DNA of 64,000 nucleotides from Desulfuromonadales bacterium (GCA_963665045.2 CAXXJQ010000002.1:22728-86727); one strand, 5' to 3'; counted from the first letter of the stretch, positions 7,164 to 62,213 are shown. Made by a program: numbers and translations. The notes: a model not told the origin generated them from the letters alone.

Positions 7164-9416
7164 TCAGTTCCGTTCCTGGCAGGATGAGCCGGGGACGTCC
7201 TCACCACACGGCCGAATACGGCAGCGCAGATACTCCCCTTTCAACGGCCAACCGCCGGACAATGCATCACATTTGTCCGGTTCGTCGTCTGTGGTCACAT
7301 TGATGTTGGCTTCCCACAAGCCATGTAGACAGGGCGCTTCCCCGGGCTGCTCCGGGAACCACCAGCCGTGCTGGGTGACAATGTAGTGAGGATCGAAGGC
7401 CGTGCTGAGACGTGCCCGCTGCCGAACGCGGCCGACGGGGCTTTCGATCCAGACCCAGTCGCCGTCGTTGATGCCTTGCCGCCGCGCCACATCCACGTGA
7501 ATCTCGACGATGGGATCGCGCTGCTGCTTCCTGAACCCCTCCACATGACGAAACTCACTGTGGTGATAGGGCATGAACCTCACCCCGCTGATGTTCAGCA
7601 GGGGATAAGCCCGCCGGACCTCTTCGGGGATATCGGGTTCAGTGTAGTGAGGCAGGGGATCATAACCCAGTTTTTCCAGAATCGTACAACTCAGCTCCAC
7701 CTTGCCGGATGTCGTGGCCAGCCCCGGAGAACGGCAGCGTCCCGCCCGGGGCTTTTCCCCGACCCAGCGCTTTTCGTGCACAAACTCCTCCAGAGTCTCG
7801 CAGCCATGCTCCTCCATGATCTCGGAGATGCGGTACTCCCACAGGGCGGCGAACGTAGGCCACGGCCAATCATTTTCCTGCCCCAGGCGCAGCCCCAACT
7901 CGCGCCAAAAGGCGTAGTCATCGAGCCGCTCGTAGCGACCCGGCACCACCGGCGGGACTGCCGCTTCCCCGAGCTGAACCAGGGGATAGCCGCCCACCGA
8001 CGAGAAATTGCCCATGTCCGGGCGCTCCATCCAGCAGGCAGCCGGCAGGACGTAATCGGAAAGCCGCGCGGTCGGCGTCCAGGTTATGTCAAAGGTCACC
8101 GACAACTCCGTCGCCAACATGGCGTCATGGACGAGTTTGGTATTGGCATAGGAAAGGAGGGGGTTACTGCATGAGGAAATCAATGCTTTTACCGGGTACG
8201 GCTTTCCGGTCAGTATCGCCCGGAAGACGCTCGGGGCATGGGCGCAGGAATGTAAATTGACCGCTGCGGAATGCCGCTCTCCCCAGACGCGCCGCATCTG
8301 CTCCTCCATCAGCTCCCAGCCCGGGTAGCCGCTGAAGCGAAAGCGGTCGCTGCCCAGTTGTTTGGCGCGCTGTTCCGGCGCCAGACGCTCGTTCGCCTCC
8401 AGAACAACATCCGGCAAAAACCCCGGACATGGACCGGCGACCAGGTCACCTCCCGGCACATCGATGCTGCCCACGATGGCACGCAGCAGATTGATGGCAC
8501 GGATGCCCTGGATACTGTTGGGCGCGCTGTGTTCGACCGCGACCCCGATGGTCATGACGGAGGGCTGGTTGGCTGCATAAAAACGCGCTATCTCGCGAAT
8601 GCGTACAGGTGTCAACCCGACCTTTTCAGCCACCGTTTCCGGAGCGTATTGCGCCGCCCGGATCCGCAACTCGTCAAACCCGTGCGTGTACGACGCCACA
8701 AATTCGCGGTCGTAGAGCTCCTCCTCGATAATCACGTGAATCATCGCCATGGCCAGCAGGGTATCACTGCCCGGCCGGAGCTGAACCCAGCAATCGGCCT
8801 GACGGGACGGCTCCGTACAGCGGGGGTCGATGACCATGGTGCGCATGCCCTCGGCTTTGGCTTTCCGGAAGCTGTTCCAGGTCGAAGGTCCCCCTTCGTG
8901 GGCGTTGCGCCCCCACAACACCATCATGCGGGTCGTGCCCGGACGCCGGTCCGAGACCAGGTGCCCCCCGAAGGTGCTGAACCACACCAGGGCCCTGGGC
9001 GCGTAACAGATGGTAATGACGCCAAAGCGGTTGGGGCTGCCGAACAGGTTCATGAAACGCGTCTTGGCGAACTCCGCGCCGCCACGGCCGGTCCCGGAGC
9101 TGGTGGCCACGGCCTCCGCGCCATAGCGTTCCCGGATATCGGCCAGACGCTTCGCAATCTCGTCCAGCGCCTGCTCCCAGGATATCTGTTCCCAGCGGTT
9201 CTCCCCCCGTTTTCCCTTTCGCTTGAGCGGAAAGGAGAGGCGGAAGGGATGCTCCTGATACTCCTTGGCCAGGGTCGGGCGCACACAGAAACCTCCCGGA
9301 CCCACCGGCGCCGACGTATCCACGGTAACCCGCTGCACCTGCTGGTTCTCGACATACACCTTCATGGCGCAGCCCTTGCTGGTGCAGAAATAACAGCTGC
9401 TGAGTTTGACCTCCAC
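7164..9416 (-). CDS. Cytoplasmic molybdopterin (Mo/W-bisPGD, DMSO-reductase superfamily) oxidoreductase
   Basis: 750 aa. N-terminal 4Fe-4S motif C-x2-C-x4-C-x28-C (SCYFCTSKGC...FCVRP) with no twin-arginine signal. Typical MopB and C-terminal molydop-binding regions. Stop/start spacing to the upstream gene is 2 nt. Confidence 0.85.
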   Translation of the reverse strand: MEVKLSSCYFCTSKGCAMKVYVENQQVQRVTVDTSAPVGPGGFCVRPTLAKEYQEHPFRLSFPLKRKGKRGENRWEQISWEQALDEIAKRLADIRERYGAEAVATSSGTGRGGAEFAKTRFMNLFGSPNRFGVITICYAPRALVWFSTFGGHLVSDRRPGTTRMMVLWGRNAHEGGPSTWNSFRKAKAEGMRTMVIDPRCTEPSRQADCWVQLRPGSDTLLAMAMIHVIIEEELYDREFVASYTHGFDELRIRAAQYAPETVAEKVGLTPVRIREIARFYAANQPSVMTIGVAVEHSAPNSIQGIRAINLLRAIVGSIDVPGGDLVAGPCPGFLPDVVLEANERLAPEQRAKQLGSDRFRFSGYPGWELMEEQMRRVWGERHSAAVNLHSCAHAPSVFRAILTGKPYPVKALISSCSNPLLSYANTKLVHDAMLATELSVTFDITWTPTARLSDYVLPAACWMERPDMGNFSSVGGYPLVQLGEAAVPPVVPGRYERLDDYAFWRELGLRLGQENDWPWPTFAALWEYRISEIMEEHGCETLEEFVHEKRWVGEKPRAGRCRSPGLATTSGKVELSCTILEKLGYDPLPHYTEPDIPEEVRRAYPLLNISGVRFMPYHHSEFRHVEGFRKQQRDPIVEIHVDVARRQGINDGDWVWIESPVGRVRQRARLSTAFDPHYIVTQHGWWFPEQPGEAPCLHGLWEANINVTTDDEPDKCDALSGGWPLKGEYLRCRIRPCGEDVPGSSCQERN

Positions 9417-9418
9417 GA

Positions 9419-10546
9419 TCAGCCCTTCGCCAGGGCGGTCATCTTGTCAAGCCTTGGAACGCCGTCCCCGGGGTTTTCGTTTTGCCAGGTTACCCAGTCC
9501 CGCAGCTTCTCATAGGCCCTGCCTTCGGCCAGGGCCTGCTTGGCCATACTGAACCCTTCCTGCAGAGAATCCGCCTTCCCGGCCACGTACAGAAGCGGGG
9601 CCGTGTTGAGGCAGACGATGTCTCTGCGCGGACCCTGATCCAGGTTGAGAAGCACCCGAAGCAGGATCGTGGCATCGTGGGTAACATTCTTGGTGGACGC
9701 CACTTCTTCATAGGTGCAACGGCTCAGCCCGAAATCCTCCGGGGTCAGCGTGTAGGTCTTGATCTCCCCGTCACTGTCAAGCTCCGCTACCTGGGTCTCA
9801 CCAAGGAGCGAAAACTCATCCATGCCCTTGTCGCTGTGGTCGTCGAGTCCGTGCATGACCAGGGCCCGCTTGAAACCCAGTTCCCGCAGGGTCTTGATCT
9901 CGATGTCGATAAACGCGGGCGTCGGCACCCCCATGACCTTGAAGGTCGGCATGGTCGGATTCAGCAGCGGACCGACCAGATTGATGGCCGAACCGAAACG
10001 GATCTGCGACAGAACGCGAGCCAGGGTCTTCGGATGAACCGAGGGCAGAAAGGCATTCCAGGCACAGATGCCGGCATTCTCGATGCTCTTCTTGGGCAAC
10101 TCCGGGGCGGATTCGACATTGACGCCCAACGCCTCCACCACATCAATGGCCCCGCAGTTCGACGAGATGGCCCGGGCCGCATGGCGCACGACGTACAAAC
10201 CGAGAGACGATCCCACGATGGCTGCGCCGGTGCTGATATTGAAGGTTTTGAGCGTATCCGCCCCGGTTCCGCAGTTGTCAATCAACGGCTCGGGGGTGTT
10301 CACTTTCACCTTCACCGTGTCGTACTCATACAAGGCCTCGAAGGTGCCGGCTATTTCCTCCGGCGTCTCCGGCTTAGATTTCAGCGCCCCGATAAAACCG
10401 CCCTGCTGCAGATCGGACTGTTCCTCCTCACATATCTGGCGCCAGCACTCCCTGGCTTCCTCCCGCGTAATATTTTCACCACGCGTCAGTCGAGTTACAA
10501 TCGCTCCAAATTCCCGCCATCGCTTTTCCTGCTGATCCATGGTCAT
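9419..10546 (-). CDS. Anthranilate phosphoribosyltransferase-like protein (glycosyltransferase family 3), divergent active-site motifs
   Basis: 375 aa. CGTGADTLKTFNISTGAA matches the TrpD GTGGD..NIST motif. The canonical KHGNR..SSKSGSAD is replaced by RHAARAISSNCGAID. Confidence 0.7.
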   Translation of the reverse strand: MTMDQQEKRWREFGAIVTRLTRGENITREEARECWRQICEEEQSDLQQGGFIGALKSKPETPEEIAGTFEALYEYDTVKVKVNTPEPLIDNCGTGADTLKTFNISTGAAIVGSSLGLYVVRHAARAISSNCGAIDVVEALGVNVESAPELPKKSIENAGICAWNAFLPSVHPKTLARVLSQIRFGSAINLVGPLLNPTMPTFKVMGVPTPAFIDIEIKTLRELGFKRALVMHGLDDHSDKGMDEFSLLGETQVAELDSDGEIKTYTLTPEDFGLSRCTYEEVASTKNVTHDATILLRVLLNLDQGPRRDIVCLNTAPLLYVAGKADSLQEGFSMAKQALAEGRAYEKLRDWVTWQNENPGDGVPRLDKMTALAKG

Positions 10547-10593
10547 GGTCCTCGCCCTCTACTTTCTCGAATTTCCCCGCCGGCCCACGGCTC

Positions 10594-11271
10594 TCAGCCG
10601 CCCGGCTTGTAGGTCACATACAGATAGTCCCCCAAAACATCCACATGATCGAGGCGGAAGGTCGGCACCGTCCCCCCCGGCCAGAAAGCGGCGCGCTGCA
10701 CGGGAGTCACAGACTGCGATCCGCCGATTACAAACGGGCACACGATCAATTGGATCTCATCGTAAAGGCCCGCCGATATCATCGAACGGTGTACGGTCCC
10801 CCCGCCTTCCACCATCAGGCGCCGAATGCCGCACTCCTGGTACAGCTTGGCCATCAACTCGGGAAGGTCCACGAAGCGCCCCCGGCGTCCGGCCACCACG
10901 ATCCTGGCTCCTCGCGCCCTGATCTTTGCAACCCGTTCGGCAGGCGCCTCCGCCGTAACGGCCACAATGGTTTCGGCCTCCGGATTCAGAATGCGCGCCG
11001 TCGGCGCCATCTCCGCCAGGCCGTCAAGGACAATCCGTTTGGGATTCCTCCCTTGCTCTGAACGCAAGGTCAGGCGGGAGTCGTCAAGCTGAATGCTCTT
11101 CAACCCCACCATGATGCCGTCCACGGAAGCCCGTTGGGCGTTGTGCAGATCCATAATCTCCGGAGCGATCAACGAGGGGCCCACCGGATTAGCCTGCCCC
11201 GGTTTTCGACGCGGCGAAATCTTGCCGTCCAGGCTGACCGCCACCAGCATAAATGTGTAAGGGCGTTTCAT
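10594..11271 (-). CDS. RibD C-terminal-domain reductase (diaminohydroxyphosphoribosylaminopyrimidine reductase / DHFR-like family)
   Basis: 225 aa. Motifs FMLVAVSLDGKIS, ASVDGIMVGLKSIQLDDSRLTLR, RIVLDG and RLMVEGGGTVH are typical of PF01872-type reductases. Confidence 0.75.
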   Translation of the reverse strand: MKRPYTFMLVAVSLDGKISPRRKPGQANPVGPSLIAPEIMDLHNAQRASVDGIMVGLKSIQLDDSRLTLRSEQGRNPKRIVLDGLAEMAPTARILNPEAETIVAVTAEAPAERVAKIRARGARIVVAGRRGRFVDLPELMAKLYQECGIRRLMVEGGGTVHRSMISAGLYDEIQLIVCPFVIGGSQSVTPVQRAAFWPGGTVPTFRLDHVDVLGDYLYVTYKPGG

Positions 11272-11344
11272 GACTCCGAACAGCTCTCCCCTCCTGAAAA
11301 TAGCCTGTGGCTCATAAAAGCAGATATTAGCTCTTAAAAGCAGT

Positions 11345-11435
11345 TCGTAACTAAAAGATTGACACTTAAAACTGTTCTTACGGCCCTTGGAATGGGCGAT
11401 AGGAGATATTGTGCCGACAAGCTGAATAATTACAA
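11345..11435. repeat. Degenerate copy of the ~82-bp palindromic repeat family (right half well conserved)
   Basis: GGAATGGGCGAT...GCTGAATAATTACAA matches the right half of the full copy at 13516..13597. The left end TTCGTAACTA matches the copy at 5684. It ends at the trpF stop codon. Confidence 0.55.
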
Positions 11436-12113
11436 ACCTGCGTGCTTCACCGCCTTGACAAAGGTCCGCATGAGGGCCTCGTCCTTGACGCCGGAGGCAC
11501 GTTCCACCCCGCTGATCACATCCACACCGTAAGGGCGCACATAGCGAACGGCTTCAGCCACATTCCCGGAATTGAGCCCACCCGCCAGTATCAAGGGGAT
11601 CGAAACGGCATCCGCCAACCTGGCGATCACCCCCCAATCGAGAGCCACCCCGGTACCTGCCGGGCGTGAGCCTGTCTTGGAATCGACAATGAGGCCGACC
11701 AAACCGCTCGCGGACAGTATCCCGGCGGCGCGAACCGGATCGGACTCGGGAAACTGAGCCTCACCGCTGTCGACATCAATGCGCAGGGCCTTGAGAACCT
11801 TGACCCCCTCCGGCCGCAGAGCATCGACGACCGCCTCGATCTCAGCCAGCGTCTCGTCGCCGTGCAACTGAAGGAAGTTCGGGCGAACCTTCCTGGCGAT
11901 GGCGATCATATCCGCCACCTCGCCGCCAACCACGGCCACCGTCGTTACAAACGGGGGCGCGCGGCGAACCAGCTCCGCCGCCTGCTCCCGCGCCAGGTTC
12001 CAGGGAACGGGCACCGGATATTCGGTTACAAAGCCCAGGGCATCGGCCCCGGCCCGCACCGCCATCGCCACATCCTCATCACTCATCAGTCCGCAGAGCT
12101 TCACTCGGGTCAT
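11430..12113 (-). CDS. trpF: Phosphoribosylanthranilate isomerase
   Basis: 227 aa. Motifs KLCGL, GADALGFV, LQLHGDE, VDSKTGSRPAGTGVALDW, ILAGGLNSGNV and GVDVISGVE are the canonical PRAI pattern. There is a 4-nt ATGA overlap with trpC. Confidence 0.85.
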   Translation of the reverse strand: MTRVKLCGLMSDEDVAMAVRAGADALGFVTEYPVPVPWNLAREQAAELVRRAPPFVTTVAVVGGEVADMIAIARKVRPNFLQLHGDETLAEIEAVVDALRPEGVKVLKALRIDVDSGEAQFPESDPVRAAGILSASGLVGLIVDSKTGSRPAGTGVALDWGVIARLADAVSIPLILAGGLNSGNVAEAVRYVRPYGVDVISGVERASGVKDEALMRTFVKAVKHAGL

Positions 12114-12835
12114 GGGGAAAACTCCCCGGCCGATGCCCTGCGCACGGCAGAAAACAGCTCTCTGATATGGGCCGTCAGATCGTCCGCCTGCAAAATGGCG
12201 GTCCCGACCAGAACCGCATCCGCTCCCGCCGCCAGCGCCCGGGCAATGTCGCCGGCGCTCAACAGAGAACTCTCCGAAAGCGTCACGATCCCGTCCGGCA
12301 CCAGTGGCGCCAGAGTTTCGGTCACCCGCACATCGCCGGAGTCCTTCTCAAGCGTGAGCAGATCGCGGTTGTTAATACCCAGGATGGCTGGACACAGCGC
12401 GAGGGCACGTTTCAACTCTTCAGCCGTGTGGACTTCCACCACGGCCTCCACGCCTGTCTCCAACGTCCTTTGGTACAACTGTTCCAACCGCCCAGGGGGA
12501 ATGGTCGCCAAGGTCAGCAACACCGCCTGCCCCCCGTAAGCCGCCGTTTCATCCACCTGATCCGGGTGCTCCAGGAAGTCCTTGCGCAGGACCGGGAGAT
12601 CGACGGCCGACGCAACCTCACGCAGCATCGCCAGGCTGCCGCCAAAATTTCTGGATTCGGTAACCACCGACAGGGCACAGGCTCCCGCCCCGGCCAGGGC
12701 CCGGGCCAGCTCGCCCGGGGAACGGTGACGCAGCAGATCGCCATCACGGGGAGAGACCGGCTTGATATCCGCGATCAAAGGGTAGCGTCCAACCTCATCA
12801 CAGCGACGGATCGCACTGGAGAGAGCACCAGCCAT
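12110..12835 (-). CDS. trpC: Indole-3-glycerol-phosphate synthase (short N-terminus)
   Basis: Motifs IADIKPVSPRDG, LSVVTESRNFGGS, PVLRKDFL, VVEVHT and GINNRDLLTLE are present. Start taken at the internal Met (MAGALSS), 2 nt after the upstream stop; the track ORF extends to 12898. Confidence 0.8.
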   Translation of the reverse strand: MAGALSSAIRRCDEVGRYPLIADIKPVSPRDGDLLRHRSPGELARALAGAGACALSVVTESRNFGGSLAMLREVASAVDLPVLRKDFLEHPDQVDETAAYGGQAVLLTLATIPPGRLEQLYQRTLETGVEAVVEVHTAEELKRALALCPAILGINNRDLLTLEKDSGDVRVTETLAPLVPDGIVTLSESSLLSAGDIARALAAGADAVLVGTAILQADDLTAHIRELFSAVRRASAGEFSP

Positions 12836-12837
12836 CG

Positions 12838-13125
12838 CTATTCGCCGTCTCCAATGAACTCGCCCCACATCCGTTCCATGTTCTGCTTTGAGTAGCAACG
12901 GAATGCCATGTGGGTCTGGGTCTTGGTGATACCCTTGACCGAACCGACGCTGCCCGCGACAACCTCGGCCAGTTCATCGTATTCTTTCACCCGGATGATT
13001 GCCAGGAGGTCATACTCACCCGACACCGAGTAGACTTCCGCAACGCCGGGACAATCCACCAGCGCCTGCGCAACCTCGTGCACCTTGCCGACTTCACAGC
13101 TAACGGTCGTAATCGCCGTAATCAT
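12838..13125 (-). CDS. Stand-alone Lrp/AsnC ligand-binding (RAM) domain protein, 95 aa
   Basis: MITAITTVSCEVGKVHEVAQALVDCPGVAEVYSVSGEYDLLAIIRV... is a RAM/AsnC_trans_reg pattern without an HTH. GGAGGAAG RBS lies before the ATG at 13125. The track ORF to 13344 is an unlikely extension. Confidence 0.7.
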   Translation of the reverse strand: MITAITTVSCEVGKVHEVAQALVDCPGVAEVYSVSGEYDLLAIIRVKEYDELAEVVAGSVGSVKGITKTQTHMAFRCYSKQNMERMWGEFIGDGE

Positions 13126-13515
13126 AGTATCTTCCTCCACCTGAAATCGTCGGACATAACGTCCGACAGCATGTGACCTGACTCCAAAATACCGATTGCA
13201 CGCCGATGGAAAATCCGCCGCGCAGCCACTCGGCCATAGATCTTTATTGCGTGGGAAGGACCTTCTCCAGCCATGCCCGCCCCATTTCTCCGATAGCAAC
13301 CCAGATTTGTACAAACTTATAAGCCAGCTGAACTTCACTGTCAACCTAAAACCATGTTTTAAAAATCAAATTACCGTTTAATTTCGATCATTTTCACGTT
13401 TTTGTCACAAAAATAAAGGAACTTTAAACCACTTGATTAATGGCTTCTCCGATTGAAAAATGTTGGTTTAAAAAAACCGGAAAATCATCTGATTGATGTT
13501 CGATCCTTGAATATT

Positions 13516-13597
13516 TTGTTACTATTCAGCATTAGGACTCGTGTCGCCCATGGAATGGGCGATGCGAGTCCTAGTGCCAATAAGCTGATAATTACAA
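13516..13597. repeat. Full-length copy of an ~82-bp palindromic intergenic repeat (REP/MITE-like)
   Basis: TTGTTACTATTCAGC-ATT-AGGACTCG-TG-TCGCCCA-TGGAA-TGGGCGA-TG-CGAGTCCT-...-GCTGATAATTACAA. It has terminal inverted repeats plus a nested 8+7-bp stem. Partial copies lie at 5684, 11345, 36423 and 37537. Confidence 0.7.
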
Positions 13598-13847: not shown

Positions 13848-14201
13848 TCAAGGGACAAGGTGGCGCAAGTGAGAAGCCTGCTCATTTTTATGAAAGAGGT
13901 CGAAAAAAATCACGCTCCGGTCATTGACGTCACCACAGGACCCGCAATGTTCCGCCAATTTTTTCGCTTCCTTCCGGCATTTTTCACACCATTGATAAAT
14001 CAGCCGGTAGTCTCTCCGGCCGACGTATTTTTTCAAGCGTCCATGGTGAAGGCCATGCATGCGGCCATCGGCATCGCCGGGCGTTTCGAGAAGACGGTTA
14101 ATAACCCGCAGAATTCGCTGGTAGCCTGATGGGTCACGTTTTTCAATCCTTTCGAGTTTTTCATCAAATTGCTCAGTGGAGTGAAAGTTGTAAGTGCTCA
14201 T
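13848..14201 (-). CDS. RelE/ParE-superfamily toxin-like protein with an inserted CxxC...CxxC zinc ribbon
   Basis: 117 aa. GRLKKYVGRRDYRLIYQW...VIFFDLFHKNEQ fits the RelE/ParE core. CEKCRKEAKKLAEHCGSCGD is inserted between the strands. Confidence 0.6.
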   Translation of the reverse strand: MSTYNFHSTEQFDEKLERIEKRDPSGYQRILRVINRLLETPGDADGRMHGLHHGRLKKYVGRRDYRLIYQWCEKCRKEAKKLAEHCGSCGDVNDRSVIFFDLFHKNEQASHLRHLVP

Positions 14202-37536: not shown

Positions 37537-37580
37537 GAAACTATTCAGCGCAAGGACTCGTGTCGCCCATGGAAAGGGCA
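37537..37580. repeat. Left-half copy of the palindromic repeat family
   Basis: GAAACTATTCAGCGCAAGGACTCGTGTCGCCCATGGAAAGGGCA matches 13518..13560 nearly base for base, then diverges into a CCGGGG-TTCCGT-CCCCGG hairpin. Confidence 0.6.
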
Positions 37581-37817
37581 TCTGGCGCCGGGGTTCCGTC
37601 CCCGGACGACGCATTACTCTTTTAACTTAATACTATCAGTTTCACCGGACCGCGGTCTTCATGTTAGCCCTGATTATTCATAATTTATAACAAAAAATTT
37701 TGCAAATGCTGGACGGGACCTCGGCCAACTGGTAATATTGTTATTGGTTAATTAACTATTTGATTTTTCTTTGTTTTTCAGCACTATAACTGAATTCTTC
37801 TACTTGAGGACGGCATT

Positions 37818-46226: not shown

Positions 46227-47576
46227 TTAATTTCTTAACGTTTTTGCAACAATTTCTGCCGCTTTAACAAGAGGGAATCCTGCAGGAGAAGCTGTCAATA
46301 AGGGTTGTGTTCCGATTTGAGTCATAATTAAATCATGGACTGTCATGTGGTTTTGAATGGCAACACCGATGGTATTAGTCAATTGGCCGGCACATTTGCC
46401 TCCAAGTACTTCACCGCCAAGGATAACACCTGATTGTTTACATACAATAAGCTTGACTGTTTCTTTGTGGGCGTCTTCTAACTTCCCCGGATGGCGGTTG
46501 ACGCCTGTAAAAGAACCAGCAACAATTTTGAAACCTTCCTTAATTGCTGCTTTCTCTATTAGACCTGCTACGCCATATGCTGTTTCCCCAATACATGTTG
46601 AGTAAATACCAACGGTTCCTTTAAAAACACTGAAAGTATTAAGTTCATATAAATTCAATGCTGCTATACGGGCTTCCGTACAAGCAGTTGATGCAAGCAT
46701 AATCCCACTCAGTTTACCAGTTGCAAAGTCAACTTTTTCTGCGCAGTCACCAGCTGCGAAAACATCTTCAATAGATGTACGACGATATTGATCCGCTTTT
46801 ATAAATCCATATTCATTAAGGGCTAATCCCATATCTTCGGCTAAAGATGTATTTGGTTTATAACCCAATGACAATATTACGGCATCAGCTTCTATAGAAC
46901 TCCCGTCATTAAAAGTAACACCTTCTACTTTGCCATTTCCAGTAATCGATTTAATTCCACAATTAGTTTTAACATTTACTTTCCGATTAACTAATTTTTC
47001 TTGAGCATCCAAACAAAATTCATCGTCAAATGTTGCACCTAGAACAGTAGGTAAAATCTCTACCAATGTTATTTCTTTTCCAATTTTATTTAATTCATCG
47101 GATACTTCTACGCCAATAAAACCTGCGCCAACAACAACGATCTTTTTTAGCCCGGCAAGTTTTTCTTGTATATGATCAAGGTATATTTTATCTTTAGGAA
47201 TTGTATAAACGTTTTCTAACTCTGTTCCGTCTAGCCAACTTGGAATTGTCGGCGTTGAACCTGTTCCCACAATTAACTTTTCATAAACAAGTGTTTCCCC
47301 TGATTTGGTCTGACATGATTTTGCTTTTGCATCTACTTTCACAACTTCATCAACAAGAATATCTACACCCAATTTAATTAACCCATCATCCGGCAAGATA
47401 TTATTGTCGCTAGACCCTGTCGTTCCATAAATATATGGAATACCACAGGGAATCATAACCTTTCCTTCTTTTCTAACAACGGTTACTTTTTTGTCCGGAT
47501 AGTTTGACTTGGCTGTCATTGCTGCTACCAGTCCAGTTGCACTACCACCGATTACCAATACATCTGTCTTTTTCAT
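46227..47576 (-). CDS. FAD-dependent pyridine nucleotide-disulfide oxidoreductase (NADH oxidase / CoA-disulfide reductase family), low-GC gene
   Basis: MKKTDVLVIGGSATG FAD motif, single redox Cys in VMIPCGIPY, second Rossmann fold VVVGAGFIGVE, and FAAGDCA. GGAGG RBS before the Met at 47576; the track ORF extends to 47699. Confidence 0.8.
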   Translation of the reverse strand: MKKTDVLVIGGSATGLVAAMTAKSNYPDKKVTVVRKEGKVMIPCGIPYIYGTTGSSDNNILPDDGLIKLGVDILVDEVVKVDAKAKSCQTKSGETLVYEKLIVGTGSTPTIPSWLDGTELENVYTIPKDKIYLDHIQEKLAGLKKIVVVGAGFIGVEVSDELNKIGKEITLVEILPTVLGATFDDEFCLDAQEKLVNRKVNVKTNCGIKSITGNGKVEGVTFNDGSSIEADAVILSLGYKPNTSLAEDMGLALNEYGFIKADQYRRTSIEDVFAAGDCAEKVDFATGKLSGIMLASTACTEARIAALNLYELNTFSVFKGTVGIYSTCIGETAYGVAGLIEKAAIKEGFKIVAGSFTGVNRHPGKLEDAHKETVKLIVCKQSGVILGGEVLGGKCAGQLTNTIGVAIQNHMTVHDLIMTQIGTQPLLTASPAGFPLVKAAEIVAKTLRN

Positions 47577-48059
47577 TCTACGGCCTCCAAGTGATAAAAA
47601 ATTCTCGGCCCCGACAGCCTCCCAAAATGAATTAGTTAAATCCTCCACTTCAATAAAACCCCTGTCAACAAAAAAATCCCCCAAGCCCGTCAAATTCACC
47701 TTGGGCTAAACCGGGGGAGATAATACCTATTGGGATGATGAACGCTGAAATCCATATCCTGAAAAAATGGGGGGGGGCATCCCGAATGGCGCTAGTTTAA
47801 GGGGTTGTCGCACGATCTTCGTTCCGGTGTGGGCACTCTTTCATTTCACGTCGTGGAGAGGTGACCCTCTGGTAAATTTCGGGTCGTCGTTTGACACACC
47901 GGGGTTCCTTCTCCCCGGTCTTTGTCGTGCCGGAGTATTGTTTATGGCCTCATATAAGTCACTGATTAACCGAAAGCGTTCTTGGATACTGATTTTGGTC
48001 CGATAACGCATGGGCGGCGTGGGTAAGAAAAATGAAACCAATTTTTCGATAAACAGCGA

Positions 48060-49186: not shown

Positions 49187-51859
49187 CTAATTCTTCACCC
49201 TCATCAACTGCCGATTGCGGAACTTATGCAGCATATTGGGGTGATGAACGCTCATATCCATGTCTTTGGTGTGGCAGAGACGGCAGTTCATTTCGGAACC
49301 GATAGGAAGGTTGTTGGCCTGGTACTGCATAGGCGGAATATTGTCACGTTCCTGGCCGTACATGTTGGTGGCGGGGTAATTGGCGTGGGTGGAGCCGTGA
49401 CAGGATTCGCACATCAGGCCCATGTTGTCGGTACGCAGGCGGAAAAGTTCGCCCGGACCGGCTGTCCAGGTATTAAAGCCATTGACATCCTTTGAAGCCG
49501 GTTTCTGGAAATCAACATGGCAGTTGAGACAGTCGGGCTCATTGATCCAGGGAATCCTGCCTTTGACCTCTTCGACGGACGCCACAACCTTGGGTTCAAG
49601 ATGGCGCATCAGCCTGTCCACATCCTTGCCATGCTCCTTTTCATACTTCAAAAGGCTCAAAGCATGATCCGCCAGGGTGCCGTGACAACTGGTGCAATCG
49701 AGGTCCAAGCCGGCATGCACGCCGCGCAAACAGCCCGTGGGACCGGTGGCGGAGGCGGGATGGCACTTGAAACAGGCGTCGGTGCCACGATCGGTCAGGT
49801 AGTTGGCGTGCCAGCCGTGCATAGCGGCCGGGAAATTGGGGATTCCCGGCTGGCCCTTGGTGCCCAGAACCGGGTCGGCGTGGCAGCTTTGACAGAGCAG
49901 CGGCTTGCCGGCCCTGGCTTTTTTCAGTAGATCAGTGCCATTGATACGGTCGTGAACGCGAAGCACATCCGCCGAGGTTTCATCGGTAAAACCGGCCACA
50001 CCGGCTACCCGCCACTCGCCTCCATGGCAGTTTTTACAGCCCATCTCCGTGGAAGTCGGGGCAACGAAGCGGCCGGTCGCGAGGATCTTGCCGGTTTTCT
50101 TGTCGACGGCTTCCACCGTGTAGAGCGGATAGGGATTGAAGGAGCCGTCGTCCGGATAGGGAACCACCGGAACCAGCGTCGCTTCAAAAGCCTTGAGTTT
50201 TTCGTTCAACTCCATCTCGCCGTCGGTGACAGGATTGCCGGAAACACCGCTGTTAAGAGGCAATTTTTTGCCCAGCAGAGACTCGGCAAATTCCCAGAAG
50301 CGCACATGCTTCGAAGGATTCTCGAACCCTTTTTCCACCCGGTAATGCAGGGTCACCCCTTCGGTGACGATCTGCGGGCGTTCCCCCTTGCGCACCAGCT
50401 GAGCATAGAGATCATTGGCCGGAGGCAGAAGAATCCAGTAGGGATCGCTGTCCGAGATGCAGTGCATGCCCAGGTTGTTCCAGGCGAGCAGAACATACTC
50501 GTCGTCAGCTTTATGGGGTGGAATTTCATAGGCGGGCGCCTTCGGCTTGTAATCCACCCCTTGAGGAGCTTTTTGGCCATGCAGACCCTCGACGATATAG
50601 GCCGCCAGGGCCTCGCGTTCGGCGCGGATGCCCAAGAATTGGGGCATGTAATTGTTGATTTTGCCAAGCCCGTTAAGCATGGAATCCATACCGAAAACGC
50701 TGTTGAACTTGGCTGTGAGAGGCAGAATGTCGTTCATTACGCCGCCGATGGAATGGCAGGAGGAACACTCCAGCTGAAAAATATCCGTACCCGCCTCAAC
50801 CCTGTTCTCCGGGGTTATGGCTTCGAACCGGGTCCATTTGGCACTTTTGAGAACCCCTCGTTGATTGATGGAGACGGCATCAGCAACCCGGATGGAATTG
50901 GAATACATGTGACCGTGCACCAGGTACGGCCGCCGCGCGCCTTCGCGGGTGAATTCAAATGCCCCCATGTACAAAAGACCGAGAAACAAAAGAAACAGGG
51001 CGGCGGATTGCTGCAAACCACGGGGCAGACGGATGCTCATGGCCAGCACAGCCAGGAAGATGACCGGGGAAAGGGTGAGGAACCCGTTGATATAAGTACT
51101 CATTTCCGGAGAAACCTTCAGCATGAGGGTGCGGGTCTCGGCCGGAATTGCATACAGGTACCAGAATGCGGAAGCAAGCATGAGGATAAACGGCAAGGGC
51201 ATCAATTTTACGGCGTAGCGCACCATCTTCTGCCGGACTTCGTCGTCTTTCAGAAAAGCAGCGGTAACGATGGCGAACAGGGAAGCGAAGACCAAAGCGA
51301 TGAAGGTGCGGAAAAACACGGACGGCCAGAAAGTCGGGTTGAAAAATCCACTCCAGAAACTACCATTTTGCAGCCAGGCCCCGGGGGTCAGCATAAAATC
51401 GATAATCCCCGTAATGATGAACAGCGACATCCAGGCGCAGATGAAATATATCCAGCCGATAAGCAGGTGCTTTTGCCGCGCCATCTTGCCAAAGGTATAG
51501 AAATAAACGAAAAGGGCGACGATTTCACCCACGAAAAAGACCCATTCCGTGGCCCATCCGAAGACGAAATTGTGGATCAGAACCGACGTCGCCGCCGGCG
51601 ACAGAAGGGAGATGGTAAACCATATTCCAACCCCGGTGAGGCCGCCGAATACCATGGTCAGCAGAAGAAAAAACTTGGTGTGCTTGCGGGTGTAATCGAG
51701 GATCGGCTGTGAATTTTCCCGGTAGCCCTTCATTTCGCAAAGGACCAGGAAAAGGCCGCCGCCAACGGCAAAATGAGCGACATAGACATGCACGACGGCC
51801 ACCAGGGCGATCCAGAAACCGCCACCCAGGATCGTAAGTTCCCAGATTGGATAATTCAC
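49187..51859 (-). CDS. Fusion protein: CydA-like (cytochrome bd subunit I-like) membrane domain + octahaem c-type cytochrome domain
   Basis: 890 aa. The N-terminal ~330 aa are polytopic with CydA-like motifs (HVYVAHFAVGGG, GWATEWVFFVGE, DFMLTPGAW, NPTFWPSVFFRTF). Eight CxxCH motifs follow: CSSCH, CKNCH, CQSCH, CFKCH, CTSCH, CLNCH, CESCH, CRLCH. Confidence 0.75.
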   Translation of the reverse strand: MNYPIWELTILGGGFWIALVAVVHVYVAHFAVGGGLFLVLCEMKGYRENSQPILDYTRKHTKFFLLLTMVFGGLTGVGIWFTISLLSPAATSVLIHNFVFGWATEWVFFVGEIVALFVYFYTFGKMARQKHLLIGWIYFICAWMSLFIITGIIDFMLTPGAWLQNGSFWSGFFNPTFWPSVFFRTFIALVFASLFAIVTAAFLKDDEVRQKMVRYAVKLMPLPFILMLASAFWYLYAIPAETRTLMLKVSPEMSTYINGFLTLSPVIFLAVLAMSIRLPRGLQQSAALFLLFLGLLYMGAFEFTREGARRPYLVHGHMYSNSIRVADAVSINQRGVLKSAKWTRFEAITPENRVEAGTDIFQLECSSCHSIGGVMNDILPLTAKFNSVFGMDSMLNGLGKINNYMPQFLGIRAEREALAAYIVEGLHGQKAPQGVDYKPKAPAYEIPPHKADDEYVLLAWNNLGMHCISDSDPYWILLPPANDLYAQLVRKGERPQIVTEGVTLHYRVEKGFENPSKHVRFWEFAESLLGKKLPLNSGVSGNPVTDGEMELNEKLKAFEATLVPVVPYPDDGSFNPYPLYTVEAVDKKTGKILATGRFVAPTSTEMGCKNCHGGEWRVAGVAGFTDETSADVLRVHDRINGTDLLKKARAGKPLLCQSCHADPVLGTKGQPGIPNFPAAMHGWHANYLTDRGTDACFKCHPASATGPTGCLRGVHAGLDLDCTSCHGTLADHALSLLKYEKEHGKDVDRLMRHLEPKVVASVEEVKGRIPWINEPDCLNCHVDFQKPASKDVNGFNTWTAGPGELFRLRTDNMGLMCESCHGSTHANYPATNMYGQERDNIPPMQYQANNLPIGSEMNCRLCHTKDMDMSVHHPNMLHKFRNRQLMRVKN

Positions 51860-57833: not shown

Positions 57834-59249
57834 TCAGATATCCAGTTTCAAAGAATGGAAAGCCGCCCGGAAATGATTGACCGGCCCATGGCCGGAACCA
57901 AAACCGGGAGCATGCCGAATAGCCTCGGTAATATATATCTTGCCTTTTTCCACTGCCCGCACCAGCGGTACCCCTTGGGCCAGGAAAGTGGCGATAGCTG
58001 CCGAATAGGTGCACCCCGTCCCGTGGGTATGGGGGGTATCGAAGCGTTGCTCCCGGAAACGGTAGACTTTGCCGTTGGCCAATAACAGATCGACGGAATC
58101 CCCTTCGAGGTGCCCCCCTTTAACAAGAATGTTGCGAGCCCCCATGGAATGAAGCTGGAAAGCGGCTTTTTCCATGTCAGCTTCTTTTTTGATGGTCATC
58201 CCGGTCAATACCTCGGCCTCGGGGAGATTGGGGGTGATGAGGTAAGCCAGGGGCAGAAGCTCATCGCGCAGGGCGGCTACGGCATCGTCCTGCAGCAGTG
58301 ATGCGCCTCCTTTGGCAATCATGACCGGATCGACAACTGCCGGCAGTGAATATTTACGGATATTTTCAGCAACGATACGGATAATTTCGGGCAAAAAGAG
58401 CATGCCGACCTTCAGGACATCAGCGCCGATATCTGAAAGAACGGCTTCGATCTGATCCTGAATGAACTCCGGAGGTGCCGGATGGATATTGCGCACACCC
58501 AGGGTGTTCTGAGCGGTCAGGGCGGTTATGGCGCTCATACCAAAACTGCCCAGCAGGGTCGAAACCTTGAGGTCGGCCTGAATCCCTGCCCCCCCTCCGG
58601 AATCGGACCCGGCAATGGTCAACATGCGGCCCCGCGGAAAGGGTTTAAGGCTGTTAAAGCTTAGTACGATCTCTCGGGCTGCCAGAGCCGGATCGGGATC
58701 GCCCATAACCGCCGAAACCACGGCCAGGACATCCGCCCCGGCGGCGAGAACGCTGCGGGCGTTTTCACTGCTGATCCCACCGATGGCGACGATGGGAATT
58801 TTTACCGCTTTGCGGATTTCAGCTAACCCTTCCGGACCGATCACAACCGCATTTTCCTTGGTCCCGGTGGGGAACATGGCGCCCACACCGATATAATCGG
58901 CTCCGTCCGTTTCCGCCTTGGCAGCCAGTTCAACAGTCCTTGCGGAAATGCCGATAATTTTGTCCTTGCCAAGGAGGCTGCGGGCCTCGCCGAGGCTCAT
59001 ATCTTTCTGGCCGAGATGCACACCGTCGGCGCCACAGGCCTGGGCCACCTCGGGGGTATCGTTAACGATAAAAAGGGCTTTGTGTTCCCGACATAAAGTG
59101 CACAGCTTTTTGGCTACGGCAATCCGCTCTTCGACAGACTTGTGCTTTTCACGATACTGGATCATGCGAGCGCCGCCGGCCAGAGCCGCAGCAACCTTGG
59201 CCTCCAGTTCGCCTTCACCACCAGTAATAACGTAAAGTCCTGTAATCAT
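57834..59249 (-). CDS. Bifunctional thiamine-phosphate synthase (ThiE, N-terminal) / hydroxymethylpyrimidine-phosphate kinase (ThiD, C-terminal)
   Basis: 471 aa. ThiE motifs: LYVIT, IQYREK, FIVND, GVHLGQKD, ADYIGVGAMFPTGTK, VAIGGI. ThiD motifs: LTIAGSDSGGGAGIQADLK, ALTAQNT, ILVKGGH, THGTGCT. Confidence 0.9.
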   Translation of the reverse strand: MITGLYVITGGEGELEAKVAAALAGGARMIQYREKHKSVEERIAVAKKLCTLCREHKALFIVNDTPEVAQACGADGVHLGQKDMSLGEARSLLGKDKIIGISARTVELAAKAETDGADYIGVGAMFPTGTKENAVVIGPEGLAEIRKAVKIPIVAIGGISSENARSVLAAGADVLAVVSAVMGDPDPALAAREIVLSFNSLKPFPRGRMLTIAGSDSGGGAGIQADLKVSTLLGSFGMSAITALTAQNTLGVRNIHPAPPEFIQDQIEAVLSDIGADVLKVGMLFLPEIIRIVAENIRKYSLPAVVDPVMIAKGGASLLQDDAVAALRDELLPLAYLITPNLPEAEVLTGMTIKKEADMEKAAFQLHSMGARNILVKGGHLEGDSVDLLLANGKVYRFREQRFDTPHTHGTGCTYSAAIATFLAQGVPLVRAVEKGKIYITEAIRHAPGFGSGHGPVNHFRAAFHSLKLDI

Positions 59250-59257
59250 AGCGATTT

Positions 59258-59428
59258 CCTTAATCCAAAAAAATAAAAATGCCGTGAACCTATTAGGTCC
59301 ACGGCATACAATGAGTATATTCCCTGTTGCGCCGCTTCCCTACGCCGGTATTATCCGGATCAGGTTCCAAGGGTCGTCTGCTTCTGGCAGAACTCTCAGT
59401 GTCCCATGTAGACACTCCCCGCTCGGGC
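59258..59428 (-). promoter_or_regulatory. TPP (THI-box) riboswitch with terminator expression platform
   Basis: The minus strand reads GGGGAGTGTC...GGGACACTGAGAGTTCTGCC...ACCCTTGGAACCTGATCCGGATAATACCGGCGTAGGGAAGC, the textbook THI element. It is followed by CCGTGGACC-TAAT-AGGTTCACGG-CATTTTTATTTTTTT just upstream of thiE/D. Confidence 0.9.
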
Positions 59429-59581
59429 TTTTGAGGTAAGCTACAGGAGTCGGTTGTTTTTGTCAATAAGTTTCAGTTAGATTGATTTATGGGCATTATA
59501 ATTACCTGGGGTTTTTTTTAGGATTTTGTTAATAATAAAAAAATTGATTTCAATCCTCCTTATAAAGAAAATTTGCGATCC

Positions 59582-60726: not shown

Positions 60727-60937
60727 CTGGTTTAACTCCCCCTTGCAACGTAGCCGGAGCGAAGGGGCTATTTTAAAATCAGACGGGCAGTTGAGCGGTT
60801 TTTGCGAATCCTGACCGTCTTTAAAATAGCCTTGTAGCGAAGGAAACCCGAAGGGCAAGTTGCGGGGTGTCCTTTTTCTGCTTACTCTTTTTAGACAAGT
60901 AAAAAGAGTAAGGCGCCGTCCGGGGGCGCAACCCCGG
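60727..60937. other. Highly structured ~210-nt intergenic region (candidate sRNA/REP-like element)
   Basis: Long imperfect hairpin (GGCTATTTTAAAATCAGACGG 60766..60786 with CCGTCTTTAAAATAGCC 60815..60831, closed by CCTTGCAAC/GTTGCGGGG). Then a perfect 12-bp hairpin (CTTACTCTTTTT...AAAAAGAGTAAG, 60881..60912). Then GC hairpins at 60913..60937. Confidence 0.4.
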
Positions 60938-60980: not shown

Positions 60981-62213
60981 ATGAACCACAAAACCACTTT
61001 TCTCGCCCTCGATCTCGGCACCACAACCCTGGCCGGCTATCTGCTAGACAGCGAAAATCGAATTCTGGCCAGAAAGTCCATTCAGAACCCCCAAAAGGCC
61101 CAGGGGCTTGACGTCATCAGCCGCCTTGAAGCAGCCTCCAAGGGCAACGGCAGGAAACTCCAAACTCTGCTCGCCGTTGGCATCAGGGACCTCGTAACCG
61201 CCCTTGCCCATGATGCAGACGTCAGGATTGATTCAATCCAGGCTGCAGCTGCAGCTGGGAATTCCGCCATTTCCGCCCTGCTGTGCGGCAGGGACGTCAC
61301 GCCCCTGCTCCTGCCCCCTCACCGCCTGCCGTCTGCCGAGGGAATACAAATCCGGCCCTCGGATCTCGATCTCGGACTGCCGGCACCGCTCTTTCTCTTC
61401 CCCCTGGCCGGCGGCTTCGTGGGCGGGGACCTCGTGGCTTTTCTCTATGCCCAGGCTCCGGAACAAACTCCGGCTATGTACCTCGACATCGGCACCAACG
61501 GCGAACTGGCCCTTTTTACCGGAGAAAAGTGGCTGGTCACCTCCGTCGCCGCCGGGCCTGCTTTTGAAGCGGCGGGCATCACCTGGGGCATGGCTGCTGC
61601 GAACGGCGCCATTGAAGGTGCTTATTTGGCCGACGACCGCCTGCGCATCACAACCATCGGCAAAAGCCCTCCTCGCGGCATCTGCGGCAGCGGCGTCGCG
61701 GAAATCATCGCCGCCGGTCTGAATAGTGGGCTTGTGGAGCCGACCGGCACTATCCGCCGGGCTGAGGAAATCGAGACCAACCTCGCCTACCACATCAGGG
61801 AAAGCCTGGAGGGGCGCTCTCTCAGCATCTTCCGGAACGCCGAAACGGATATTTATCTCTCCCAACAGGACATCCGCAGTTTTCAGCTGGCCAAGGGCGC
61901 TATCCGGGCGGGCATTGAATGCCTTTTGGCCAAAGCAACACTGCAACCGGCAGCTATCCGCCGCACCTACGTGACAGGCGCCTTCGGTCTTTCCATCCGC
62001 AAGGAGGTTCTGAAAACAGTTGCGATGCTTCCGCCAAAAATGTTAGATAATGTTGTTTTTGTCGCCGACGGCGTTCTGGAAGGTGTCCGCCACTTCCTCT
62101 TCGCCCCGGACGGCCATGCCGAGTTGCATAAACTGGCTAAAGCATTGGTCCCATTCCCCCTTTCGGGAACGCCTGCTTTTGAAAAGGCTTTTTTGCAGGC
62201 CCTCGACTTTTAG
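60981..62213 (+). CDS. ASKHA-fold ATPase, DUF4445 family (RACo C-terminal-like) without a ferredoxin domain
   Basis: 410 aa. Motifs FLALDLGTTTLAGY, YLDIGTNGELAL and GICGSG are typical of the corrinoid-activation-protein ATPase module. Confidence 0.65.
   Translation: MNHKTTFLALDLGTTTLAGYLLDSENRILARKSIQNPQKAQGLDVISRLEAASKGNGRKLQTLLAVGIRDLVTALAHDADVRIDSIQAAAAAGNSAISALLCGRDVTPLLLPPHRLPSAEGIQIRPSDLDLGLPAPLFLFPLAGGFVGGDLVAFLYAQAPEQTPAMYLDIGTNGELALFTGEKWLVTSVAAGPAFEAAGITWGMAAANGAIEGAYLADDRLRITTIGKSPPRGICGSGVAEIIAAGLNSGLVEPTGTIRRAEEIETNLAYHIRESLEGRSLSIFRNAETDIYLSQQDIRSFQLAKGAIRAGIECLLAKATLQPAAIRRTYVTGAFGLSIRKEVLKTVAMLPPKMLDNVVFVADGVLEGVRHFLFAPDGHAELHKLAKALVPFPLSGTPAFEKAFLQALDF

Follow-up and report, generated by a model that had tools for sequence, protein, structure and literature searches.

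A recurrent six-gene cassette of tryptophan pathway-like enzymes, a RibD_C-type reductase, and an acetylene hydratase-clade molybdenum/tungsten enzyme that may act on an amine other than anthranilate

RESULTS

Six tightly packed genes form a noncanonical trp-like block

We analyzed a 64,000-nucleotide (nt) stretch of DNA from a Desulfuromonadales bacterium (GCA_963665045.2, CAXXJQ010000002.1:22728-86727), referred to here as the window, and focused on a cassette of six minus-strand genes at positions 7164 to 13125. These genes encode homologs of three tryptophan biosynthesis enzymes (TrpD, TrpF, and TrpC) along with a RibD_C-type reductase, a molybdenum/tungsten (Mo/W) enzyme, and a small RAM domain protein, and the residue changes described below suggest that the trp-like enzymes act on an amine that is not anthranilate. 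The features of the cassette are as follows.

7164-9416, minus strand: Mo/W enzyme, 750 amino acids (aa), GTG start
9419-10546, minus strand: TrpD-like phosphoribosyltransferase, 375 aa
10594-11271, minus strand: RibD_C-type NADPH reductase, 225 aa
11272-11429, no strand: intergenic gap inside the cassette, 158 nt, AT-rich, 43% GC
11430-12113, minus strand: PRAI (TrpF)-like isomerase, 227 aa
12110-12835, minus strand: IGPS (TrpC)-like (beta-alpha)8 enzyme, 241 aa from the ATG at 12835
12838-13125, minus strand: stand-alone RAM protein, first gene of the cassette, 95 aa from the ATG at 13125

From the Mo/W gene toward the RAM gene, the genes were separated by gaps of 2 nt, 47 nt, and 158 nt, followed by a 4-nt overlap between the start of the PRAI-like gene and the stop of the IGPS-like gene and a final gap of 2 nt. 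Pfam and NCBIfam profile scans identified Molybdop_Fe4S4, Molybdopterin, and Molydop_binding domains in the Mo/W enzyme and Glycos_trans_3N and Glycos_transf_3 domains in the TrpD-like protein, while the remaining four proteins matched RibD_C, PRAI, IGPS, and AsnC_trans_reg (a RAM domain alone). The open reading frame (ORF) calls and these scans agreed with an earlier first-pass annotation, made from the window sequence, in the number, strand, spacing, and domain content of the six genes. That annotation had also stated that trpE, trpG, trpA, and trpB were missing from the window; this stands for trpE and trpB, no homologs of which were detectable in the 64 kb, with trpG and trpA given no separate query.

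The cassette recurs in a fixed order in unrelated lineages

To assess the distribution of the cassette, we inspected genomic contexts, scanned 185,579 species-representative genomes, and ran tblastn searches with the six proteins. The gene order RAM, IGPS-like, PRAI-like, RibD_C, TrpD-like, and Mo/W enzyme recurred in approximately 25 loci, which represent eight or more bacterial lineages. The species-representative scan was pattern based and gives a lower bound; it found the TrpD-like gene in at least 29 genomes, all of which were metagenome-assembled genomes (MAGs). As named in the titles of the genome records, the carriers belonged to Desulfuromonadales, Desulfobacterales, Syntrophus, Phycisphaerae, NC10, Brocadiia, Lentisphaerae, Chromatiaceae and other Gammaproteobacteria, and Alphaproteobacteria (two genomes), and Gemmatimonadota were present among the protein names of metagenomic homologs of the TrpD-like protein. 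Most of these lineages are known as anaerobes. The flanks differed between cassette loci and were mutually unrelated, no seventh gene recurred among the neighbors of these loci, and no trp gene beyond those for the PRAI-like and IGPS-like proteins was recurrent there. The first-pass annotation had made its proposal depend on whether the RibD_C and Mo/W genes are conserved jointly with the trp-like ones, and all six genes were indeed kept together, in one order, across unrelated lineages. Its description of the block as noncanonical was likewise correct.

Several features of these loci bear on how the cassette has spread. Homologs of the TrpD-like protein made up more than 100 metagenomic protein clusters (73 to 95% identical) and were 66 to 92% identical in the genome loci, and their identities were discordant with taxonomy, the copy from Lentisphaerae being 83% identical to that of the window and another Desulfuromonadaceae copy being 75% identical. 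The cassette had a GC content of 61% (72 to 76% at third codon positions [GC3]) versus 51% for the rest of the window. In its nearest relative, locus L007 from a Desulfuromonadales MAG, the cassette was 87 to 90% identical at the nucleotide level and the flanks were not shared. Mean pairwise protein identities among the loci were 75% for the TrpD-like protein, 70% for the Mo/W enzyme, 67% for RibD_C, 66% for the RAM protein, 64% for the PRAI-like protein, and 59% for the IGPS-like protein. No cassette-type copies were found on the plasmids in PLSDB, where all 231 matches were less than 60% identical and were canonical trpD genes. Taken together, these comparisons indicate that the cassette is most likely accessory and horizontally spread and that its recurrence is beyond what chance would produce.

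The Mo/W gene adjoined the TrpD-like gene in every sufficiently long locus except two, L030 and L031. Both are from alphaproteobacterial MAGs (Rhizobiaceae and Boseongicola) and carried only a cassette-type TrpD-like gene (66 to 69% identity) and a HAD phosphatase gene (L030:10001-11815 and L031:4799-6643); the L030 pair adjoins ORFs that, by eye, resemble IS3-like transposase genes. The TrpD-like and Mo/W genes stood alone in locus L015, behind glyA, a dCMP deaminase-like gene, and nrdR, as read by eye from the N termini. We considered a riboflavin operon position for this pair, and since the tail of the contig is noncoding, nothing was concluded. A second gene for a Mo/W enzyme of the bis(pyranopterin guanine dinucleotide) (bisPGD) type was located within a few kilobases of the cassette in three loci (L008:3162-5531, L017:1163-3403, and L024:13434-15485), and its product was 36% (L017) or 31% (L024) identical to the cassette Mo/W enzyme. 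A tRNA gene lies approximately 100 nt downstream of the L007 cassette (13469-13542), a position that would fit an island-like insertion; the window has no tRNA gene there. The window also contains a pyridine nucleotide-disulfide oxidoreductase gene (46227-47699, minus strand) with a very low GC content of 38.5% and a GC3 of 26%. It shares 87% nucleotide identity with an L007 gene situated approximately 0.8 kb upstream of the cassette, whereas here it is 33 kb away from the cassette.

Substrate-binding residues are changed in the enzymes of phosphoribosyl chemistry

The TrpD-like protein retained the motifs that bind 5-phosphoribosyl-1-pyrophosphate (PRPP) and Mg (GTGAD, NIST, SS, and GMDE), and it ended in a conserved C-terminal extension (WVxxQN) that was also present in the sister relatives described below. 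The replacement of the canonical KHGNR and SSKSGSAD motifs by RHAAR and SSNCGAID, noticed in the first-pass annotation, is real: GTGAD, RHAAR, and SSNCGAID were invariant across 15 homologs. In TrpD of Mycobacterium tuberculosis, N138 and R193 have been assigned to the anthranilate carboxylate (review PMC9835598). The equivalents of these two residues in the cassette protein were A124 and L179. Among canonical cluster representatives, Asn was found at the 124 position in 92 of 106 and Arg at the 179 position in 97 of 106, and 92 of 104 canonical representatives had the Asn/Arg combination. Judged by these positions, normal use of anthranilate by the TrpD-like protein is almost certainly excluded.

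The PRAI-like protein scored below all NCBIfam cutoffs, its best score being 157 bits against a cutoff of 231. Its Cys7 (in KLCG) and the Asp of VDSKT aligned with Cys7 and Asp126 of Thermotoga maritima TrpF and were invariant in the family. Conversely, the canonical PKSKR36Y stretch was replaced by an invariant EYPxxVPWN, such that a Pro aligned with Arg36, the residue that reportedly contacts the anthranilate carboxylate in the 1LBM complex. The IGPS-like protein also fell below all cutoffs (best NCBIfam TrpC score of 207 bits versus a cutoff of 284) and matched Pfam IGPS at profile positions 45 to 254 only. It has no N-terminal helix alpha-0, with approximately 18 residues preceding the barrel, and its alignment to M. 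tuberculosis IGPS begins at residue 53 of the latter. Among 19 members of the family, D23xK25, K84, E134, N154-N155-R156, and S187-E188-S189 were invariant, with the Glu that precedes the first catalytic Lys conservatively replaced by Asp23. The claim that the trpF and trpC products keep all of their catalytic motifs therefore held for the catalytic residues and failed for substrate-binding residues, which differ in both proteins.

The RibD_C protein approached but did not reach the cutoffs of two family models (TIGR01508, 158 bits versus 186; TIGR00227, 141.5 versus 150), and its nearest structures were the archaeal riboflavin pathway reductases 6p8c and 2azn, with approximately 40% identity as estimated by eye. 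The catalytic Asp (LDDSRLT) and Glu (VEGGGT) were conserved, as was the NADPH glycine motif. The roles of the catalytic Asp and Glu in this family have been described, as has a specificity residue for the pyrimidine C2 group, at which bacteria have Lys, archaea have Asn, and yeast has Thr (PMC3631187). In the cassette proteins this specificity position was an invariant Leu9.

All four of these enzymes look catalytically competent, and the alignments of the four point the same way: phosphoribosyl chemistry appears to be retained, while the aromatic partner appears to be unlike both anthranilate and the riboflavin pyrimidine. The coordinated nature of the changes in the TrpD-like, PRAI-like, IGPS-like, and RibD_C proteins argues for a changed aromatic partner, which is probably less polar at the altered contact positions. 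The suggestion in the first-pass annotation of a different amine substrate is thereby strengthened, since both anthranilate-carboxylate contacts of TrpD are lost and matching changes occur at aglycone-contacting positions in the PRAI-like and RibD_C proteins.

The Mo/W enzyme belongs to the acetylene hydratase clade

The structure nearest to the Mo/W enzyme was acetylene hydratase (AH; 2e7z), matched over nearly the full length (E value of 1.9e-116, 393 bits), and thiosulfate reductase (2vpw) came next, a wide margin behind. Formate dehydrogenase and nitrate reductase were ruled out on the basis of their much weaker similarity. The Cys that serves as metal ligand was conserved, that of ITICYAP aligning with AH Cys141, and the Fe-S motif, C8xxC11xxxxC16...C44 (CxxCxxxxC), contained one extra residue compared to that of AH. 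Since the Fe-S cysteines begin at residue 8, there is no room for a twin-arginine translocation (TAT) leader. The first-pass call of a TAT-less Mo/W-bisPGD oxidoreductase with an N-terminal FeS cluster was correct as far as it went and can be refined to a stand-alone enzyme of the AH clade, of which, to our knowledge, just one member has a known reaction.

The small pocket of AH reportedly includes Ile113 and Trp179, as Seiffert et al. 2007 are said to have described. Both of these residues aligned with Gly in the cassette enzyme, and such replacements imply a larger pocket and a larger substrate; the pocket is probably larger than that of AH. According to a 2025 review that also mentions Trp179 (PMC12096430), Asp13 is a residue particular to the AH subfamily, and the D13A variant is inactive. 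In the cassette enzyme, Thr12 follows C11 in place of Asp13, and no Asp was present within the CxxCxxxxC stretch. The absence of Asp13 rules out AH proper. No gene for an electron transfer partner was found in the cassette beside the Mo/W enzyme; AH likewise has no partner subunit, and by this analogy hydration or hydroxyl transfer is somewhat more likely than respiration-type redox chemistry.

The RAM protein and control signals

The RAM protein matched Pfam AsnC_trans_reg alone and has no helix-turn-helix. Its nearest structure was 2djw (92 aa, E value of 4e-17), annotated as an AsnC-family regulator, which we take to be a stand-alone RAM protein of Thermus thermophilus. The physiological role of stand-alone RAM proteins has been described as unclear (PMC2995911). 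The gene headed the cassette in most loci, and 30 of the 95 positions of the protein were invariant across 13 loci. Scans of the sequence upstream of the cassette in 25 loci yielded no riboswitch or other RNA element that met the Rfam gathering thresholds.

The 158-nt gap between the PRAI-like and RibD_C genes had been thought to hold a repeat element. This was not borne out: the gap was single copy in the window and contained short direct repeats only, comprising two imperfect two-copy families and, by eye, four CTTTTA-type motifs, which rules it out as a multicopy element. The length of this gap ranged from approximately 6 to 420 nt among the loci. The longest, that of L007 (420 nt), holds an element of approximately 210 nt (L007:8925-9249), copies of which were present at two intergenic sites of the window (60729-60936 and 37537-37628) with 73 to 85% identity. 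This suggests that the 210-nt sequence is a small mobile or repeated element.

Relatives of the TrpD-like protein are linked to cobamide genes

To collect relatives of the TrpD-like protein, we searched protein cluster representatives at the 50% identity level exhaustively. The cassette type accounted for one representative; relatives followed at 52% and then at 36 to 44% identity, and canonical TrpD proteins were approximately 35 to 40% identical (approximately 200 bits). An A/S124 plus L179 signature was present in 100% of the relatives. In a neighbor-joining tree, the relatives and the cassette TrpD-like protein formed one clade apart from canonical TrpD.

We examined 83 loci of this sister group, 80 of which came from a metagenome scan and three of which had been found earlier. 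In 68 of the 83, the TrpD-like gene was paired with a gene for a Zn-dependent MDR dehydrogenase (examples are L053:6643-9119 and L102:7531-11427, with others among L038 to L120). In seven loci the dehydrogenase ORF was approximately twice the usual length, and the one that was scanned was a fusion to bacterial CobT (DBI_PRT, 430 bits). An additional ORF cluster was found near the pair in eight loci, and its scanned member (in L038) matched archaeal-type CobT (TIGR00303, 311 bits). Genes for CbiZ and a TonB-dependent receptor followed the pair in two loci, and in 15 of the 28 loci scanned the pair was immediately preceded by a cobalamin riboswitch (RF00174). We know of no published function for this MDR/TrpD-like module. 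An intermediate TrpD-like protein, P0122 (L037:204-1680, on a 1.7-kb contig), was 52% identical to the cassette protein and had a KHGAR motif, and the gene that follows it encodes a product that, by eye, is like a NifH/BchL-type ATPase.

Different results were obtained for the cassette clade. No cobalamin riboswitch was found in the window and 24 cassette-clade loci (22 with the cassette and 2 with the TrpD-like gene plus HAD), and neither the MDR dehydrogenase nor a linkage to CobT was present in any of them. Thus, the nearest relatives of the cassette TrpD-like protein appear from these gene neighborhoods to sit in a B12 regulon, whereas the cassette itself is without such control.

Other features of the window

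Four further features of the window were recorded. A 117-aa ORF approximately 0.7 kb upstream of the cassette (13848-14201, minus strand) had no Pfam match and resembles, by eye and unverified, a RelE/ParE-type toxin. A thiamine pyrophosphate riboswitch (59320-59431, minus strand; 64 bits) lies upstream of a fused ThiE-ThiD gene (57834-59249, minus strand; TMP-TENI plus Phos_pyr_kin). A gene at 49187-51859 (minus strand) encodes an 890-aa protein with a cytochrome bd subunit I-like region and multiheme cytochrome c domains, and one at 60981-62213 (plus strand) is RACo-like (reductive activator of corrinoid proteins).

DISCUSSION

The reading that we consider reasonably probable is that the cassette encodes a route similar to the tryptophan pathway that operates on an amine other than anthranilate and that probably yields some ring compound in place of tryptophan. 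In such a route, the TrpD-like protein would couple PRPP with a primary amine, aromatic or heteroaromatic, in which the ortho-carboxylate is lacking or differently presented, the PRAI-like protein would subject the N-(5-phosphoribosyl)amine so formed to an Amadori rearrangement, and the IGPS-like protein would close a ring onto the C2' carbonyl. The RibD_C protein, using NADPH, might convert the ribosylamine to a ribitylamine or reduce an imine arising from ring closure, and the stand-alone AH-clade W/Mo enzyme might add or move an oxygen function, through hydration or hydroxylation, on either the substrate or the product. The RAM protein may sense a small ligand and modulate the system. We infer each of these chemical steps, their order, and the nature of the substrate and product. 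The N-ribityl or N-ribulosyl aryl amine product, the ring hydroxylation or reduction by the Mo enzyme, and the regulation through the RAM protein that the first-pass annotation proposed likewise stand as hypotheses. More speculatively, if the substrate were a vicinal diamine, all of the enzymes would find a natural place: the Amadori rearrangement could be followed by attack of the second nitrogen on C2' to form a dihydropyrazine, which RibD_C, being similar to dihydrofolate reductase, could then reduce, in parallel with the chemistry of GTP cyclohydrolase I.

Several observations weigh against this proposal. The TrpD-like protein passed the trpD family model TIGR01245 with 288 bits versus a cutoff of 199, and public annotations, including many metagenomic records, label it "anthranilate phosphoribosyltransferase"; when this automated label and the family model are set against the residue evidence, we favor the view that anthranilate is not used in the usual way. 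The IGPS-like protein kept the Arg of the catalytic set, which in canonical IGPS binds the carboxylate of 1-(o-carboxyphenylamino)-1-deoxyribulose 5-phosphate, so the substrate may be carboxylated. The order of steps is tentative, since one and the same ribosylamine would be a substrate for both RibD_C and the PRAI-like protein, a competition that only a branched pathway or a later step for RibD_C would avoid. Promoter and terminator consensus scans of the block gave nothing above shuffled expectation, and there were no cultured carriers among the 29 matches of the species-representative scan.

A bolder proposal, which we put forward as a tentative possibility, is that duplicated tryptophan enzymes together with a riboflavin-type reductase and a W/Mo enzyme use PRPP and an aryl amine, either lacking a carboxylate or of the vicinal-diamino type, to build a new heterocyclic cofactor or a base of the cobamide lower-ligand type. 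The A124/L179 clade as a whole, including the CobT-fused pairs controlled by B12 riboswitches, would then represent an unrecognized PRPP-dependent branch of cobamide or cofactor metabolism.

It is rather unlikely, although conceivable, that the function of the cassette is specifically cobamide lower-ligand or tetrapyrrole-cofactor chemistry, in which the cassette would build or modify a benzimidazole-like or other heterocyclic base, starting with PRPP and an aryl amine that is vicinal-diamino or has no carboxylate; such a function would be a narrower form of the route to a product other than tryptophan outlined above. Membership of the TrpD-like protein in one clade with the sister group, their common A/S124 and L179 residues, and the sister group's pairing with MDR dehydrogenases, CobT fusions and neighbors, CbiZ, TonB receptor, and riboswitches in 15 of 28 loci all point toward cobamides, as does the NifH-type ATPase-like gene (by eye) that follows the 52%-identical intermediate. 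The cassette loci themselves do not follow this pattern. Neither the window nor the 24 cassette-clade loci had a cobalamin riboswitch, no CobT, CbiZ, or other cobamide gene was among the recurrent neighbors of the cassette, and the partners of the TrpD-like protein within it (PRAI, IGPS, RibD_C, and the AH-like enzyme) are wholly unlike the MDR partner of the sister group.

We think it improbable that the cassette is instead a PRPP-dependent route from a 5,6-diaminopyrimidine to precursors of pterins, lumazines, or flavins. The TrpD-like protein would in this case remake 5-amino-6-(5-phosphoribosylamino)pyrimidine, which is normally derived from GTP, the PRAI-like and IGPS-like proteins would copy the Amadori and ring-closure steps of GTP cyclohydrolase I to give a dihydropterin or dihydrolumazine whose side chain is glycerol phosphate, and RibD_C would either make the ribityl form or reduce the dihydro ring in the manner of dihydrofolate reductase. 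Each enzyme would thus have a chemically natural role, going by what is generally known of the GTP cyclohydrolase I and RibD mechanisms, and the RibD_C protein comes close to equivalog level for the archaeal diaminoribosylaminopyrimidinone-phosphate reductase (the TIGR01508 score given above). However, an invariant Leu occupies the position at which the pyrimidine C2 group is read, the substitutions in the TrpD-like (Ala and Leu) and PRAI-like (Pro and Trp) proteins are more hydrophobic and fit a pyrimidinedione poorly, and no locus showed a link to a rib or fol gene.

A very improbable alternative is that the cassette serves to degrade or detoxify aromatic amines from the environment. Ribosylation and rearrangement would serve to activate the amine for attack on the ring by the W/Mo enzyme, and the origin of the enzymes in biosynthesis would be incidental. 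Pyrogallol transhydroxylase and resorcinol hydroxylase are Mo/W-bisPGD enzymes of anaerobic aromatic degradation, and the carriers of the cassette, all MAGs, are mostly of lineages generally known as anaerobic; the TrpD-like protein and HAD phosphatase found alone in two Alphaproteobacteria would yield a riboside. On the other hand, no genes for CoA ligases, ring reductases, transporters, or other catabolic functions recurred beside the cassette, the expenditure of PRPP and NADPH would be costly, and the very high conservation of the TrpD-like protein (75% mean pairwise identity) suggests a single, fixed, endogenous substrate.

The least probable explanation, and in our view a most improbable one, is an ordinary split trp operon that holds the sole trpD, trpF, and trpC of the genome with RibD_C, Mo/W, and RAM genes as passengers, for although TIGR01245 is passed, the catalytic residues of all three enzymes are intact, no other trp gene was found in the 64-kb window (trpE and trpB queried), and the public annotation names an anthranilate phosphoribosyltransferase, the six genes are conserved together in one order in unrelated lineages with differing flanks, carriers are sporadic among the genomes scanned (29 of 185,579 species representatives), identities are discordant with taxonomy, the base composition looks foreign, both anthranilate-carboxylate contacts are lost, and the PRAI-like and IGPS-like proteins score under every NCBIfam equivalog cutoff.

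If the cassette does direct a tryptophan pathway-like route on another amine, it would constitute a compact, self-contained pathway in uncultured bacteria of mostly anaerobic lineages and would provide a physiological context for a tungsten/molybdenum enzyme of the AH clade. The link of the sister group to CobT and cobalamin riboswitches further suggests an unrecognized PRPP-dependent step in cobamide lower-ligand metabolism. These possibilities are of interest for the enzymology of the tryptophan, riboflavin, and Mo/W families as well as for cobamide biology. The enzyme families and the logic of PRPP transfer, Amadori rearrangement, and cyclization are known; the combination and, apparently, the substrate are new, and no description of the six-gene cassette was found in the full-text literature searched.

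Comparison with known systems places these features in context. The cassette proteins share folds and Pfam families with canonical TrpD, TrpF, and TrpC, are approximately 35 to 40% identical to solved structures, and likely perform the same chemistry (phosphoribosyl transfer, Amadori rearrangement, and ring closure). Unlike the canonical trp set, they are encoded without trpE or trpB beside them and are joined to RibD_C, AH-clade Mo/W, and RAM genes. The RibD_C protein has the fold, NADPH motif, and Asp/Glu pair of ArfC and Rib7, but its gene is located among trp-like rather than rib genes. Like the acetylene hydratase of Pelobacter acetylenicus (2e7z), the Mo/W enzyme is predicted to be a cytoplasmic, single-subunit protein with an N-terminal [4Fe-4S] cluster and a Cys ligand, whereas Asp13, Ile113, and Trp179 of the former correspond to Thr, Gly, and Gly in the latter. 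The RAM protein resembles SraA of T. thermophilus and DM1 of Pyrococcus in consisting of a RAM domain alone, approximately 95 aa in length, and differs from both in its constant place as the leading gene of an enzyme cassette, with a gap of only 2 nt to the gene that follows. The closest parallel to the TrpD-like protein is in the sister MDR/TrpD-like pair, which belongs to the same clade. Its nearest full-length members are 42 to 44% identical to the cassette protein and 15 of 28 sister loci have the riboswitch, versus 0 of 25 cassette loci, yet both systems couple a TrpD-like protein to a nicotinamide-dependent reductase or dehydrogenase.

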